Notes: a model not told the origin generated them from the sequence alone. Positions 21,109 to 47,057 are shown, counted from the first letter of the stretch. The stretch: DNA of 64,000 nt from Desulfamplus sp. (GCA_015231615.1 JADGBE010000014.1:3196-67195), one strand, 5' to 3'. Numbers and translations are program-made.

Positions 21109-21242
21109 CAATAATAATTTTTAATTTTTTTTATATTGAACCATATTTTAATGTCAGATATAGATACTCAAAATTTTTAAAAATTATTGTTCTCTTAACA
21201 GTGTTAGAAATTAGGATTGATATTAAACAGATAGGTGATTTT

Positions 21243-21542
21243 ATGCAGTTTATTGTAATAGGTTATGATGGAACAGATGAATATGCTCTTGAGAGAAGAA
21301 TGGTGGCAAGAGAAGCACACCTAAAAGTTGCCTCTGAGATGAGTTGTCAAGGAAAATGGCTTTATGCAGCAGCTATCTTAAATGACAAAGGCAATATGTG
21401 TGGTTCTATGATTGTCTGCGAATTTGATTCAATTGAGGCATTAAAAGCAGAGTGGTTAAACAGCGAGCCATACGTTATCGGCAATGTATGGGAAAAAATT
21501 GATATTAAACAGGCTAAAGTTGCACCATTTTGTGCTAAATGA
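21243..21542 (+). CDS. YciI family protein
   Basis: R..AREAH, GSMIV and EPY motifs. Start moved to ATG 21243 after an AGGTGA RBS. Confidence 0.87.
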   Translation: MQFIVIGYDGTDEYALERRMVAREAHLKVASEMSCQGKWLYAAAILNDKGNMCGSMIVCEFDSIEALKAEWLNSEPYVIGNVWEKIDIKQAKVAPFCAK

Positions 21543-37140: not shown

Positions 37141-37258
37141 TTAAACATTATATTCTTACCTATGATGTTCGTGTTAGTTAGGCAAGAGACGCAAATAAAT
37201 CTCTTTTATTATTAAACATTATATTCTTACCTATAATGTTCGTGTTAGTTAGGCAAGA
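37141..37258 (+). repeat. 47-bp direct repeat, two copies with a 71-bp period, ending in GTTAGGC-AAGA
   Basis: ttaaacattatattcttacctat(g/a)atgttcgtgttagttaggcaaga at 37141 and 37212. Confidence 0.92.
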
Positions 37259-37279
37259 AAATCATAAAAATCTATTTGG

Positions 37280-38152
37280 TTACAAAGTGTTCTGGTTAGG
37301 TATTACTGAATAATGAATCGCATTTTTTCCTTGATTCTTTACAGAATACATTAATTCATCAACTATCTTCACTATCTCATCAGGTGTTGATATAGGATTC
37401 TTACATGTTAATACACCTATGCTAAATGTTATTTCCCAACTATTTTTGTCCATTGCTCTCAAAAGCCCCTTTTGAATCTTCGAGACAACTATTCGTGCTG
37501 CTTCTTCTCCGATTTCTGGTAACAATAACGCAAATTCATCACCACCAAGCCTTGCAACAACATCAACTTTGCGAAGGTTGTTTTTGATATAAGTAACTGT
37601 CGTCTGGAGAACTCTATCTCCAACAGAATGACCAAACTTGTCATTAACGGCTTTAAAATTATCAAGATCAAAATAAACTATGGTAAAAGGATGGTTATAT
37701 CTCTTAGAACGCTCTATTTCCGCCTGCATCAACTCCATAAAAAAACGCCTATTAGCAGCTCCTGTCAAACCGTCAGTATGAGCTAATTCTTTTATACGAA
37801 CTATATATTTTTTTGATGTATGAAGCCAATATACCAACATTGCAAATATCCAGAATTTTAATAAAGGATTCAGGATATAGTATGCCCAATGAGAGTAGTA
37901 ATAACTATTAGAGACTCTTACAAAGACAAGCATAATAGGGCTCATAAATGCTAATGCTAATCCAATTCGCCAATTTGTAAACCAAGCAGCCGCTAACACA
38001 GGAATAGCATAAAGCAAGTTTAACTCAATCTCGTATCCAGTAAGAAAATCAAGATAACTTATTATTACAAGGAGTATAAACACTGTCAGTGTCCAGATTC
38101 CCCTGTTTGCAAGATTTGAAGCACTTGGTCGCCAAAAAAGATGTTTAATCAT
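37280..38152 (-). CDS. Membrane-bound diguanylate cyclase
   Basis: N-terminal TM helices, DLDNFK, RKVD I-site and GGDEF; start after GGAGGT. Confidence 0.92.
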   Translation of the reverse strand: MIKHLFWRPSASNLANRGIWTLTVFILLVIISYLDFLTGYEIELNLLYAIPVLAAAWFTNWRIGLALAFMSPIMLVFVRVSNSYYYSHWAYYILNPLLKFWIFAMLVYWLHTSKKYIVRIKELAHTDGLTGAANRRFFMELMQAEIERSKRYNHPFTIVYFDLDNFKAVNDKFGHSVGDRVLQTTVTYIKNNLRKVDVVARLGGDEFALLLPEIGEEAARIVVSKIQKGLLRAMDKNSWEITFSIGVLTCKNPISTPDEIVKIVDELMYSVKNQGKNAIHYSVIPNQNTL

Positions 38153-42754: not shown

Positions 42755-43171
42755 ATGAAACATTACAGAAAAGAGATTTTCCTTGAAGTTCCAACAAGAC
42801 GTGCATTTATTAATATCACCCCACAAGTTGAGGCGATTCTTAAAGAGAGTGGCATAAAAAACGGGCTGCTTTTGTGCAATGCTATGCACATTACAGCATC
42901 AGTTTTTATAAATGATGATGAATCTGGTCTTCACCACGATTATGAGGTGTGGTTAGAAAAAATAGCTCCGCATGAGCCAGTCTCTCAATATCGTCATAAC
43001 GGCTATGAAGACAACGCAGATGCCCATATAAAGAGGCAGATAATGGGGCGTGAGGTTGTTGTTGCAGTTACTGATGGAAAACTTGACTTTGGAACTTGGG
43101 AGCGTATATTTTACGGCGAATTTGATGGCAGAAGAAAAAAACGGGTTCTTGTGAAAATTATTGGTGAGTAA
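42755..43171 (+). CDS. YjbQ/UPF0047 family protein
   Basis: HITAS, NADAHIK and [13 protein letters not shown] motifs. Confidence 0.9.
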
Positions 43172-43229
43172 AAAGTTATTAGAAAAAACGGTAGCGTTAT
43201 TGAAAACATATTTATTTAAGGAGATTTTT

Positions 43230-44714
43230 ATGAAAAATCCAATTAATGTATCAGGTAGATTTGAAAGAAATTATAGAAAAAATTTTGTATTTAAACCTAT
43301 TAATATGGTTTGGTTTATGTTTGTGGTGCTTTGTTTTACAGCATTGCCAGATAATTCATTTTCAAAATCAGTTCCTATGGTGCCAGCAACTTTTAGTGAT
43401 ATTGCTGACGAGGCAAGAGCTGCTGTTGTAAATATACGAACGACAAAAAACCTTAAAGGTGGTGGACGAGTTTTTAACCATTTCTTTGGTCAACCTTTTG
43501 GTGGAGATGAGATGTTCCGTCAATTCATGGAACCTTTTATGAAACAACAACCAAGAGAGCATGAGCAGAACAGCTTAGGCTCTGGTTTTATTGTAAGTCC
43601 TGAAGGCTACATTGTAACTAACAACCATGTTATTGAAGGTGCAGATAGCATAAGCGTAAAGATGTATGATAACAAAGAGTATAGTGCAAAATTAGTTGGT
43701 CGTGATCCTAAAACCGATCTTGCATTAATTAAAATAGATGCAAAAGGTCTTACCTCTCTAAAACTTGGGAACTCTTCTGATTTAAAGGTTGGAACATGGG
43801 TTGTTGCAATTGGAAGTCCATTTGGTCTTGAGCAGACTGTTACTGCTGGTATTGTCAGTGCTAAAGGAAGAATCCTTGGCTCTGGCCCCTATGATGACTT
43901 TATACAGACAGATGCCTCAATTAATCCGGGTAACAGCGGAGGACCTCTTCTTAATCTTGAAGGTGAGGTAATCGGAATAAATACAGCTATAGTACAATCT
44001 GGACAAGGTATCGGTTTTGCCATTCCTTCTGACCTTGCAAGGGGAATTGTTGAGCAACTTAAGAGTTCAGGTGAAGTTACACGAGGATGGCTTGGTGTTG
44101 CAATTCAAGATATTACTAAAGAACTTGCCGAATATTATGGAATTACAAACCGTGAAGGTGCATTAGTTGGGACAGTCTATAAGGATCACCCAGCAGACAA
44201 GGCTGGAATAAAGGCGGGTGATATGATAATAAAAGTTAATGATAATCCTGTAAAATCAAGCCGTGATTTATCATCTTCTATTGCAGGACACGCTGTTGGA
44301 GAAAAAGTTGATATTACCTTTATTCGTGATGGACAGGTAAAAACAGTTAAAGTTACATTGACAAAACGAAATGACTCTGAGCAGTTTGAACAATCTTTAT
44401 CTCAATCTCAATCAGAAAACGGGCAATTTGATGAATTGGGTATGAATTTAAGTGTTATTAATGATGAGATTGCTTCAAGATTTGGCTATGACCCAAGAGC
44501 AAGAGGTCTTGTTGTTATTGACATTGAACCTGACAGCAAGGCTGCGGTTTCTGGTATTAGGGTTGGAGATGTTTTAAGAGAGGTAAATCACAGACCTGTT
44601 GACAATATAAATCAGTATAACTCTATATTGAAGCAAACTCAAAAAGGGGCTTCTCTTCAGTTGCTTTTTATAAGAGGAAATGCAAGTTTTATAGCTGTAA
44701 GGCTTGTTAAATAG
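43230..44714 (+). CDS. DegP/DegQ (HtrA) serine protease with two PDZ domains
   Basis: TNNHV, TDLAL and INPGNSGG motifs; start after AAGGAG. Confidence 0.93.
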
Positions 44715-44852
44715 TATAACCTCTTAGAACCTGTTTAAAAGTTATCTTTAACGTTTAAACATTATATTCTGATTATAACGGTTTTGCAATGCTTGATATT
44801 TTACAGGATAGATTAAGTTATCCATTAGTCTTAATAATGCTTTTTAATAACA

Positions 44853-44988
44853 TTCCCTGATATTAGTGCTAAAATCAACTTATCAGGGAAAATTGACCTG
44901 ATAAGTTGTTATCAAGGAAATGCTTCCTTGATAATATGGAATTGAAGGTATTATCAGGTAAGAATGACCTGATAATCAATGGTTAGCA
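44853..44988 (+). other. attI-like recombination region: seven alternating CC(T)TGATAA half-sites ending in a G^TTAGC core
   Basis: Half-sites at 44853, 44880, 44895, 44909, 44924, 44951 and 44967. The final CCTGATAA-TCAATGG-TTAGC has TAA-7 bp-TTA geometry. Confidence 0.6.
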
Positions 44989-44998
44989 TGGACACGGT

Positions 44999-45445
44999 AT
45001 GAACAGAATTCGATTAAAATATGTTTTTTTGTCAGGAGTGTTTCTTTTTATATTTAGTTTTCTTTGTGGGATATTTTCATTTCCATATCCCGACTTACCA
45101 CCGGAAGATGTAAATATACATAACTTTTTTGCATCTTTGTTTCTGTGGAGTTTTTGTGGTGGCATAGGGTTAATGCAAATAGCTATCATCGTTGGGATAA
45201 TAAAAGTGCTTTACAATAATTTGGCATCCATGTTTAGCGGATTTTTAGTTGGAATTTTTCTTGTAGTTTTTGGGTACTTTTACGGAGTGTACTTTGCCTT
45301 ACCTCTTCCGAATCCACCCGAAGGAATATTATGGGTATTTCATTTTTTTGCAAGCCTAACAGTTTTTTTGGTTGGCTTAGGATTGTTTCTAATTATTCTT
45401 AAAAATTATTTAGCTAACGAGGTATTGAAGCGGACAAGCCGCTGA
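44999..45445 (+). CDS. Cassette-borne small membrane protein with an internal duplication
   Basis: Four hydrophobic segments; FPYPDLPPE..HNFFASL recurs as LPLPNPPE..HFFASL. Confidence 0.75.
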   Translation: MNRIRLKYVFLSGVFLFIFSFLCGIFSFPYPDLPPEDVNIHNFFASLFLWSFCGGIGLMQIAIIVGIIKVLYNNLASMFSGFLVGIFLVVFGYFYGVYFALPLPNPPEGILWVFHFFASLTVFLVGLGLFLIILKNYLANEVLKRTSR

Positions 45446-45459
45446 ATGCGGCGTTAGAG
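45412..45459 (+). other. Integron attC site (48 bp, very short)
   Basis: AGCTAAC-GAGGT-ATTGAAGC-GGAC-AA-GCC-GCTGAAT-GCGGC-GTTAGAG. R'' GCTAAC is complementary to the cassette start G^TTAGC at 44982. Confidence 0.78.
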
Positions 45460-45512
45460 CATGAATATTTAAACAGGCTCTTAATAGGACTTACCAGCAA
45501 TTTGAATCTTAT

Positions 45513-45565
45513 GCCCCGAAATAAATTTCAGGGTTAAACTTACCAGAAGTCAGCTAAATCTGACT
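45513..45565. repeat. REP-like hairpin pair
   Basis: gccccgaaataaatttcagggt and agtcagctaaatctgact; same architecture as 8478-8533. Confidence 0.45.
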
Positions 45566-45590
45566 ATTATATCCCAAATGTGAGATTTTA

Positions 45591-47057
45591 ATGTTATTTA
45601 ATTCACTATCTTTTGCCCTGTTTTTTATCCTTTTAACAGGGCTTCATTTCTCTTTGCCCCACAGATTCAGATGGATATTGATTTTAGCTGCAAGCTACTA
45701 TTTCTATATGTGCTGGAACGTGGGGTATATTCTTCTTATTGCAACTTCTACATTGATTACTTGGTATGCAGGACTGAAAATAGAAGGTGCGTTAAGCAAT
45801 AAGAGAAAAAAACATTTTCTAATCGCAAGCCTTGTAGCCAATCTTGGTGCATTACTCTTCTTTAAATACTTTAATTTCTTCACCACATCTCTTTTTCAAA
45901 TATCAGCTAAATTTAATCTATTTACTGGATATGAAGCCCCTTTACTCCACATTATGTTGCCAGTTGGAATATCTTTCTACACCTTCCAGACAGTTAGCTA
46001 CACAATTGACATCTATCAAGGCAAAATCGAGCCAGAAAAGCATCTTGGTATATTTGCCCTTTATGTAGCCTTTTGGCCCCGAATTGTTGCTGGACCAATT
46101 GAGAGAGCTGGAAAACTTATACCTCAGTTTAGAAAAGTAATCTCATTTGACTATTCAAATACAACTGACGCTCTTAGGTTGGTTTTGTGGGGCATGATAA
46201 AAAAAGTTGTGATTGCTGACCAACTTGCAGTTTACGTTAATCAGGTCTTTGATAATTGTGGCGATTACACAGGATTTCCTCTGATTATTGCCTCAATATT
46301 CTTTACAATTCAGATTTATTGTGATTTTTCGGGATACTCTGATATGGCTATTGGAACAGCCAAAGTTATGGGATATGAACTAACTGAAAACTTCAGACAC
46401 CCATATTTTGCAGCCTCATTGCGTGAATTCTGGCAGAGGTGGCATATATCGCTCTCAACATGGTTTAGAGATTATGTTTATATTCCTCTTGGAGGCAAGA
46501 GAGTTGTAAAATGGCGATTTTACTATAATCTATTTATCACATTTTTAGTGAGTGGACTTTGGCATGGTGCTAATTGGACATTTGTAATATGGGGCGGTTT
46601 GCATGGTCTCTATTTAATTATTGAGAATATTGTTGAAGAATTTTTCAGCAATATTTTTAAAACTACTTGGAATAGTATTGAAAACACCACCTTTTATAAG
46701 GCTATCCGTGTTGCAATAACATTGTTTTTGGTTAATTATGCGTGGATTTTCTTTAGAGCAAATACTGTTTCTGACGCATTTTCAATAACAGGTAAGATGT
46801 TTATATTTGATTTTAAAAACTCATCATCTCTTATTGAGAATATTGTTGTAGTTGAACCATCTTCATTTATTCTTAGTTTAGCTCTTATACTCTTTCTTAT
46901 TGTTGTTGAGTTCAAAGAGCAGACAATCAAAATTGAGAACTATGTTGGAAACCTGCCATTTGTAGCACGTTGGTCTATCTACACTTTAGGACTGTGGGCG
47001 GTCATCATTTCAACAGTTTTTGGTGTAAAACAAGAGTTTATCTATTTTCAATTTTAA
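45591..47057 (+). CDS. MBOAT O-acyltransferase, AlgI/PatA-like
   Basis: MLFNS, LPVGISFYTFQ, DFSGYSDMAIG, FWQRWHISLS and GLWHGA motifs. Confidence 0.93.
   Translation: MLFNSLSFALFFILLTGLHFSLPHRFRWILILAASYYFYMCWNVGYILLIATSTLITWYAGLKIEGALSNKRKKHFLIASLVANLGALLFFKYFNFFTTSLFQISAKFNLFTGYEAPLLHIMLPVGISFYTFQTVSYTIDIYQGKIEPEKHLGIFALYVAFWPRIVAGPIERAGKLIPQFRKVISFDYSNTTDALRLVLWGMIKKVVIADQLAVYVNQVFDNCGDYTGFPLIIASIFFTIQIYCDFSGYSDMAIGTAKVMGYELTENFRHPYFAASLREFWQRWHISLSTWFRDYVYIPLGGKRVVKWRFYYNLFITFLVSGLWHGANWTFVIWGGLHGLYLIIENIVEEFFSNIFKTTWNSIENTTFYKAIRVAITLFLVNYAWIFFRANTVSDAFSITGKMFIFDFKNSSSLIENIVVVEPSSFILSLALILFLIVVEFKEQTIKIENYVGNLPFVARWSIYTLGLWAVIISTVFGVKQEFIYFQF

Follow-up and report, generated by a model that had tools for sequence, protein, structure and literature searches.

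A segment between an htrA/DegP-type serine protease gene and an MBOAT-family acyltransferase gene, in the 64-kb stretch of Desulfamplus sp. DNA analysed here (the window), is best explained as an integron attI platform that lacks an integrase, holds one gene cassette and is framed by two unrelated relics of insertion sequences (ISs); we put the probability of this reading at about 0.8. The window lies on contig C55 of its own genome, G000, a metagenome-assembled genome (MAG) of 3.86 Mb in 200 contigs with 36% G+C. Comparisons were made with G009, the closest relative (98% complete, flanks 94% identical), and, for the placement of htrA and MBOAT, with the further congeners G004, G005, G007, G011 and G013. 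A preliminary description had presented the 754 bp between the two genes as one transposable 'mini-integron' moved by an IS, with an integron fragment captured between IS ends as the alternative; the alternative proved to be the closer description. The 13-bp inverted ends, TTA flanks, palindromic boxes, core, open reading frame (ORF) and attC on which that description relied are all present at the positions it gave. They also go beyond chance: the attI-like part recurs at at least 14 other loci and beside both integron integrase (intI) genes of the genome, the attC is the sole match of its kind in the 64 kb, and the 13-mer is the end of an IS family. The homology of the platform to intI-adjacent attI sites, the boundaries of the cassette, the membership of its attC in a covariance model, the identity of the two ends and the non-adjacency of these ends in relatives were all observed directly. 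No integrase or transposase was found inside the segment.

An attI-like site without an adjacent integrase

The attI-like platform occupies 44783-44982 on the plus strand and consists of a promoter-region remnant followed by palindromic boxes, up to the G of the core GTTAGCA (44982-44988). Three TTATCAGG-N9-CCTGATAA palindromes lie at 44880-44904, 44909-44934 and 44951-44975, and the ATG of the ORF is at 44999, 16 nt past the core G. When the segment was searched against its own genome, the whole 760 bp was single-copy, with two repeat families inside it: 44823 or 44853 to 44988 was found at at least 14 loci of G000 and the last 28-30 nt at at least 25 loci. At the DNA level, G000 has no other copy of the ORF or of the segment's first ~100 nt.

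The integron integrase model TIGR02249 gave no match on contig C55, and in G000 its cut-off was passed only on C77 and C163 (444-445 bits). The C77 gene (C77:34674-35624) is intact, with an ORF of 338 aa, and the C163 gene (C163:9522-10472) contains one in-frame TAA. An in-frame TAA like the latter was also seen in G001 and G011, where it could reflect a pseudogene, recoding or a sequencing error. The repeat lies ~100 nt from the start of both intI genes of G000, on the opposite strand, which is the place beside intI where an attI is expected. The attI-like part of the window is 88% identical to the site divergently adjacent to the intact intI on C77 and 74% identical to that on C163. The loci retrieved from Desulfamplus MAGs with the IntI protein all carried the same repeat just upstream of intI, complete or truncated. 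The attI-like site of the preliminary description is thus homologous to the intI-adjacent region of two G000 integrons and of integrons in other MAGs of the genus, and an intI gene with the same upstream repeats, which that description had envisaged, is present on both C77 and C163. These two integrons are 79% identical across intI and the attI region, and their similarity stops at both edges of that stretch. Thirteen copies of the repeat were aligned at a common anchor; every one ended in ..ATGGTT and diverged immediately afterwards, the next bases loosely fitting GTTRRRY. Because the repeat adjoins intI on C77, on C163 and in the other Desulfamplus MAGs, and because it ends sharply at G|TT, we call it attI-like. 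By homology it is the putative attI site of the Desulfamplus integrons, and its palindromic boxes would bind IntI.

At least three different upstream modules precede the core-proximal ~105 nt that the attI copies share, namely an intI/TTGACA type, a 'TATGTTATCAAAGTATATATTGCCCTGATAAC' type and a 'TTTATAAGAAAGATTCAA' type. Variants of the upstream modules were seen on C116, C178, C67 and C78 of G000 and in G009 at L041:5380-5450 and L099. Several attI copies retain a promoter-like TTGACA-type box (TTGACATATTTATA..), and the copy on C195 retains ~50 nt of the intI 5' end. Where the intI-adjacent copies have the TTGACA-type box, the window copy reads TTGATA with a deletion. An extended -10-like box (TGCTAAAAT, 44866-44875) is conserved among the long copies. 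The number of sites detected by a promoter consensus scan was not above that in shuffled sequences. Some attI-like copies sit within cassette arrays, downstream of an attC.

A single cassette with a short attC

The platform is followed on the same strand by a single gene cassette of 471 bp (44983-45453), which begins with the TT of the attI core and ends with the G of R'. Its ORF (44999-45445, plus strand) encodes a predicted small hydrophobic membrane protein of 148 aa, and the stop codon falls within the attC. Four homologues of the protein were found (42-83% identity), all unnamed and all from contigs that carry the same 471 bp; no Pfam family matched it, and a protein atlas gave nothing usable.

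The covariance model used for attC detection, R1, was built from nine other attC sites of G000 with the window site excluded. In the 64-kb window it gave a sole match, at 45410-45460 on the plus strand (20.3 bits, E 0.0034), in agreement with the attC proposed earlier. The site comprises the boxes R'' (GCTAAC, 45413-45418), L'' (ATTGAAGCGGAC), L' (GCCGCTGAAT) and R' (GTTAGAG, 45453-45459). The consensus fold of the R1 sites contains two unpaired bases on the 5' arm. The window attC is 48-51 nt long, and its variable loop has just 2 nt where the model has 54 positions. The attC sites of the C77 array have the conserved boxes L'' ATTTCAGCGGAC and L'/R' GCCGYTGAR-N5-CGTTAR, and the window site has the same boxes with a near-zero variable loop. 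The cassettes of the C77 integron (L058, G000:C77:26000-36500) encode a restriction enzyme and N6-methylase pair and two PIN-toxin/antitoxin pairs.

At six loci (the window, C12, C118, C123, C77 and C163) the first attC downstream has an R'' complementary to 6-7 of the 7 nt at the attI/cassette junction, and even the atypical junction on C12 is paired (GTTCGAA/TTCGAAC). Such complementarity is what the insertion of a circular cassette at attI leaves behind, and it is seen at integrase-less copies too. The window cassette was also detected in five metagenome contigs (L086-L090) with 84-89% identity and with homology limits at 44982/44983 and 45452/45456. In L087-L090 it stands behind the attC of another cassette (..GGCG|TTAGCATGG) and in L086 behind an SDR gene. 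Because the same 471 bp occurs in differing contexts and is bounded at both crossover points, 44983-45453 is a mobile integron cassette. The R1 match, the complementarity of R'' with the junction and the recurrence of the cassette elsewhere bear out the single IntI-type cassette of the preliminary description. One contig from the sediment-metagenome run X3 joins 44986 to 45456, as if the cassette were absent; it covers 26 nt on one side and skips 469 nt, not 471, and was not counted as evidence.

The two ends of the segment

On the left side, after the htrA stop codon, a TTA (44724-44726) is followed by the 13-mer GAACCTGTTTAAA (44727-44739); on the right side the 13-mer TTTAAACAGGCTC (45468-45480) is followed by TTA (45481-45483), and the two arms differ by one mismatch. 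The left TTA, which lies outside the IS stub, was read directly and is present in G009 too. A genus-wide search with the 13-mer demonstrated that the GAGCCTGTTTAAA ends are genuine IS5-family ends and overturned the proposition that no IS shares these terminal inverted repeats (TIRs). The search brought out inverted pairs of the 13-mer at two spacings, 215 bp, with four such pairs in G004, and 911 bp. At G004:C104 (L091:553-1463) we found a 911-bp IS with 26-nt TIRs (GAGCCTGTTTAAAAATTATTTGTAAC) starting with GAG and with TTA on both sides, whose transposase occupies two frames and matches DUF4096, DDE_Tnp_1 and NCBIfam NF033580 (IS5 family). G009 contains a full-length copy with TAA flanks, and fragments of the IS lie at contig ends in G000 (C48, 99% identity; C93, 96%). 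The IS5-type ends with a 3-bp TNA duplication that had been predicted are thus found on an actual IS in the genus. From the TNA duplication, a trait of that ISfinder group, we tentatively assign the 911-bp IS to the IS1031 subgroup. A DDE_Tnp_1 locus on C167 was rejected as the source IS, as it is an unrelated IS with other ends, and PF13586 gave no match in G000.

The left end (44727-44766, plus strand) begins with a right inverted repeat (IRR)-type end (GAACCTGTTTAAAAGTTATCTTTAAC...) and is 82.5% identical over 40 nt to positions 872-911 of the G004:C104 IS. At the same place G009 has ~143 nt of IS-derived DNA in two pieces, corresponding to IS positions 911-818 and 577-525. The left end is, to judge from these alignments, the terminal 40-nt stub of a decayed, truncated IS5-family copy. 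G000 has a 113-nt deletion at 44763/44764, and the stretch, which is IS-derived, is kept in G009 and in several metagenome contigs.

The right end is of a different kind. It is a 24-nt palindromic 'nano-element', B (45457-45480, minus strand), which matches in 23 of 24 positions the palindrome GAGCCTG-TTTAAATATT-CAGGCTC. About 27 copies of this palindrome are present in G000, each between TTA or TAA. The palindrome is derived from the IS TIR, being composed of 17 nt of the TIR (one change) and 7 nt of the opposite end. With TTA at both 45454-45456 and 45481-45483, the right end is a self-contained 24-nt element with its own TTA pair. The sequence TTAGAGCATGAATA, in which a truncated second cassette had been suspected earlier, forms this repeat's inner arm, and the R' GTTAGAG combines the attC's G, the TTA and the GAG with which the element begins. 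Nor is the TTA pair that flanks the segment the telling duplication for which it had been taken: it is uninformative because every member of this repeat and IS family sits between TTA or TAA.

The family forms a size series, from the 911-bp IS through 215-bp MITEs (miniature transposable elements ending in inverted repeats) with the same 26-nt TIRs (L092-L095, G004) and ~100-nt elements (L097, L098) to the 24-nt form (for example C133:15681-15704), and all members of the series lie between TTA or TAA. At two independent loci, 45453-45483 in the window and ~21190-21280 on G009:C34 (L104), the palindrome is placed directly on an attC R' core in the same relative orientation. The resulting arrangement, ..GTTA|GAGCAT.AATATTTAAACAG.CTC|TAA, yields GTTAGAG...CTCTAAC, i.e. 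two inverted core-like sites. The palindrome may preferentially target the core's TTA, or more may be involved. Elsewhere in the window, a tandem repeat with a 71-bp period (37141-37282) consists of a AACATTATA...TATRATGTT dyad followed by GTTAGTTAGGC; it has 16 nt in common with 44755-44770, and no second copy of it was found in G000.

Arrangement in related genomes

The genes on either side lie outside the segment. The htrA gene (43161-44714, plus strand; Pfam Trypsin_2 and PDZ) has a 94% identical orthologue on G009:C11, and the MBOAT gene (45591-47057, plus strand; Pfam MBOAT) begins downstream of the right end. On G009:C11, a contig of 545 kb, htrA, TTA, the IS stub and attI are found in the same place; the array behind them is a different one, with six or more attC matches, and no right-hand TIR was found in the 61 kb that follow. 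The same 24-nt copy and MBOAT are found on another contig, G009:C14, where the DNA ahead of them holds four other genes, a single attC, a fragment of attI (45 nt) and an ORF of 194 aa. The only DNA specific to G000 in comparison with G009 is 44987-45451, i.e. the cassette. htrA and MBOAT occupy separate contigs in G004, G005, G007, G011 and G013. For G005 and G013 the flanks were read as well: both genes have different neighbours there, and attI and the TIR are absent. The core-proximal 45 nt of the window attI match the htrA-linked type (G009:C11) in 44 positions and the MBOAT-linked type in 40. Since this part is of the htrA-linked type, the two halves of the locus meet at the recombination cores. 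The arrangement fits an IntI-type exchange, or homologous exchange with cassette turnover, and is unlike the insertion of a 754-bp transposon.

These comparisons bear on the proposal that the 754 bp form a single non-autonomous, IS5-bounded element (a mobile insertion cassette or MITE), inserted at TTA between htrA and MBOAT and movable by an IS transposase, which we consider unlikely. It is true that one IS5-family IS gave rise to both ends, that they point inward and that TTA stands beside each, but the TTA match carries little weight for the reason given above, the right end forms a 24-nt element that is complete in itself, TTA/TTA flanks included, and the left end is a decayed stub that is longer in G009. 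The IS itself is present as fragments in G000 and at full length in G009, and the spread of the 24-nt derivative to about 27 sites suggests that very short ends may suffice for mobility; the unit as a whole is nevertheless single-copy in G000, and in G009 its ends lie on different contigs. Of the 15 attI copies, 3 have a TIR-like element no more than 2 kb away, versus 3.4% of random places. The elements near the copies on C195 and C132 are in the wrong orientation for framing, and such ends bracket no other attI copy in G000. Neither further copies of the unit nor an empty TTA site in relatives, both of which had been anticipated, was found; two exact-pattern scans of metagenome contigs, for the htrA-TTA-MBOAT junction and for the htrA 3' flank, gave nothing, which is a weak negative. 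A further candidate, the TIR as part of a duplicated attI module, was rejected; the TIR match located 113 nt from attI in G009:C8 is a complete 24-nt repeat.

Several points weigh against the reading of the segment as an integrase-less attI platform with one captured cassette. Across the whole of G000, R1 detected 22 sites, among which the window attC ranks last (E 0.2), and this attC is shorter than usual, attC sites generally measuring about 57-140 nt. The preliminary description had stressed that R'' matches the upstream core rather than its own R'. The better match to the core stands (6/6 complementary versus 5/6), but the distinction amounts to a single base. In G009 the sole intI is truncated alongside ~20 attI copies, and present-day activity there is doubtful. 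Finally, all the genomes used are MAGs, in which a chimeric join within the repeated attI is possible, and no public sequencing run contained more than 14% of the sampled words, the resulting contigs giving no span over the locus junctions.

An assembly chimera, in which htrA-attI-cassette-MBOAT would have been joined through the repeated attI, seems to us quite unlikely all the same. G000 consists of 200 contigs, attI copies at different loci reach 96% identity, the two halves are on different contigs in G009 and the public runs that were found do not span the junction. The htrA-linked character of the core-proximal 45 nt (44/45 versus 40/45), however, means that such a join would need to hit the core exactly. 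Moreover, the G000 orthologue of the 194-aa ORF lies on C152, where the DNA that comes directly after it is different and contains no attI, so the two genomes differ whether or not the assembly is chimeric. It is very unlikely that the TTATCAGG/CCTGATAA array is instead a transcriptional operator or leader module of a regulon with only incidental adjacency to intI: the array always stands just upstream of a gene, several copies have a TTGACA-type box and the palindromes resemble dimer-binding operators, but the homology stops at G|TT in every copy, the R'' of the downstream attC complements the junction at six loci, a same-strand attC lies downstream at 7/15 loci in G000 and about 12/20 in G009, the module adjoins intI in every intI-bearing Desulfamplus locus fetched and no Rfam family was found within 44500-45700. 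The roles of operator and recombination site are not mutually exclusive.

For the integrase-less attI platform we propose the following course of events, the order of which is inferred. A circular cassette with a short attC would have been inserted by IntI, which would recombine the attC with the attI core at G|TT (44982|44983), giving the product junctions GG|TTAGCATGG at the left (attI/cassette) and attC R' G|TTA.. at the right. Because the locus has no integrase, the enzyme must have been supplied from elsewhere; the intact IntI on C77, which sits by an 88%-identical attI, may have acted in trans. A truncated IS copy would have landed after htrA, and the 24-nt palindromic derivative ahead of MBOAT, at the TTA in the core of the last attC. 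The two relics would then have become neighbours by rearrangement and cassette turnover at attI/attC cores and not by transposition of the whole segment.

attI sites and integrase genes in Desulfamplus

The number of attI-like sites exceeded that of intI genes (TIGR02249) in each of the four genomes counted. G000 has 14-15 attI-like sites and two intI genes, one of them intact. In G009 we detected 22 attI-like matches at about 20 loci and one intI, which is truncated (model positions 1-210). G005 has seven attI-like sites and one intI, and G013 has eight and one truncated intI. Two of the 14-15 attI copies in G000 adjoin intI, and the 7/15 copies with a same-strand downstream attC include both of these. 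In G009, 19 of the 28 attC matches stand behind an attI. Capture sites scattered around the chromosome, as suggested in the preliminary description, are therefore present in G000.

Orthologous orphan attI sites were found in two pairs, G000:C44/G009:C6 and G000:C123/G009:C5, whose flanks are 94-99% identical on both sides and whose inserts, which lie between attI and the far flank, are different. Orthologous sites with differing inserts suggest cassette turnover at attI sites without an integrase, with capture probably in trans. Remnants of intI of various lengths were found beside some attI copies, which favours repeated decay of full platforms as the origin of those copies. The spread of attI as part of a 'giant cassette', in which a secondary site upstream and an attC downstream would join into a circle, was considered and rejected; the window contains no second attC whose R'' matches the left boundary.

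We tentatively put forward a broader picture, which may well prove wrong, of a 'distributed integron'. One integrase (or none that is left) would serve at least 12 scattered attI sites, which would exchange cassettes in trans under a local promoter beside housekeeping genes. The attI/attC cores would act as breakpoints of chromosome reshuffling, and TTA-targeting IS5 mini-elements could occasionally frame and move a platform.

Relation to known integron loci

We found no paper in the literature connecting Desulfamplus with integrons. In the categories of IntegronFinder, a single attC without an integrase is a SALIN, and a cluster of attC sites without an integrase, a CALIN, needs two (PMC4889954; 10.1101/2022.09.11.507474). 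Our locus, with one R1 match in 64 kb and a contig without intI, has the composition of a SALIN, and it resembles SALINs and CALINs in that the cassette has an attC with no integrase nearby. The loss of intI from a former integron is one proposed origin of such loci (PMC4889954; 10.1101/2022.09.11.507474). Cury et al. (2016) reported that attI could not be searched for in most integrons, its sequence being unknown, and that recognisable intI pseudogenes lie near only 5% of CALINs (PMC4889954). Loot et al. proposed in a preprint that insertion at attG sites of the genome gives rise to many SALINs and found recombination of attI1 into genomes not to be significant (10.1101/2022.09.11.507474). 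In contrast, the window cassette sits at a retained attI that is multiplied in the genome (14-15 copies) and not at a genomic attG. An integrase-less locus at a retained and multiplied attI differs from the cases of both Cury et al. and Loot et al.

The locus shares with sedentary chromosomal integrons an attI with a GTTRRRY-like core, the R''/L''/L'/R' boxes and an R'' that complements the 5' junction, and cognate complete integrons are present on C77 and C163. It differs from them in having no intI and one cassette and in the multiplication of its platform over the chromosome. The nearest analogues of the transposon proposal are integron mobilization units and MITE-flanked class 1 integrons, which have two like MITE copies and a matching target duplication and whose movement is documented. 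As in those, an integron fragment lies here between two short IS-derived inverted-repeat elements. The relics in the window are, however, unlike each other (an IS stub versus a 24-nt palindrome), lie at two distinct loci in G009 and give no indication of having moved together. The family of the relics resembles IS5 elements of the IS1031/IS427 type in its 911-bp IS, 26-nt TIRs starting with GAG, 3-bp TTA/TAA duplication, two-frame transposase and 215-bp MITEs, whereas the window has only a 40-nt stub and a 24-nt double-end derivative, without a transposase.

A transposable mini-integron would have mattered as a means of seeding capture sites, and the evidence here does not support it. The usual picture of an integron is one integrase with one attI. 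CALINs and SALINs are common, and their origin is debated because the attI sequence is unknown for most integrons. In Desulfamplus the attI is recognisable, and it shows integrase-less cassette loci that retain a full attI, with attI sites outnumbering integrase genes by roughly 7:1 to 20:1. If the integrase acts in trans, a single gene could run many sites of cassette capture and expression, which would change how integrons are counted in genomes, and there would be a testable origin for at least some CALINs and SALINs.

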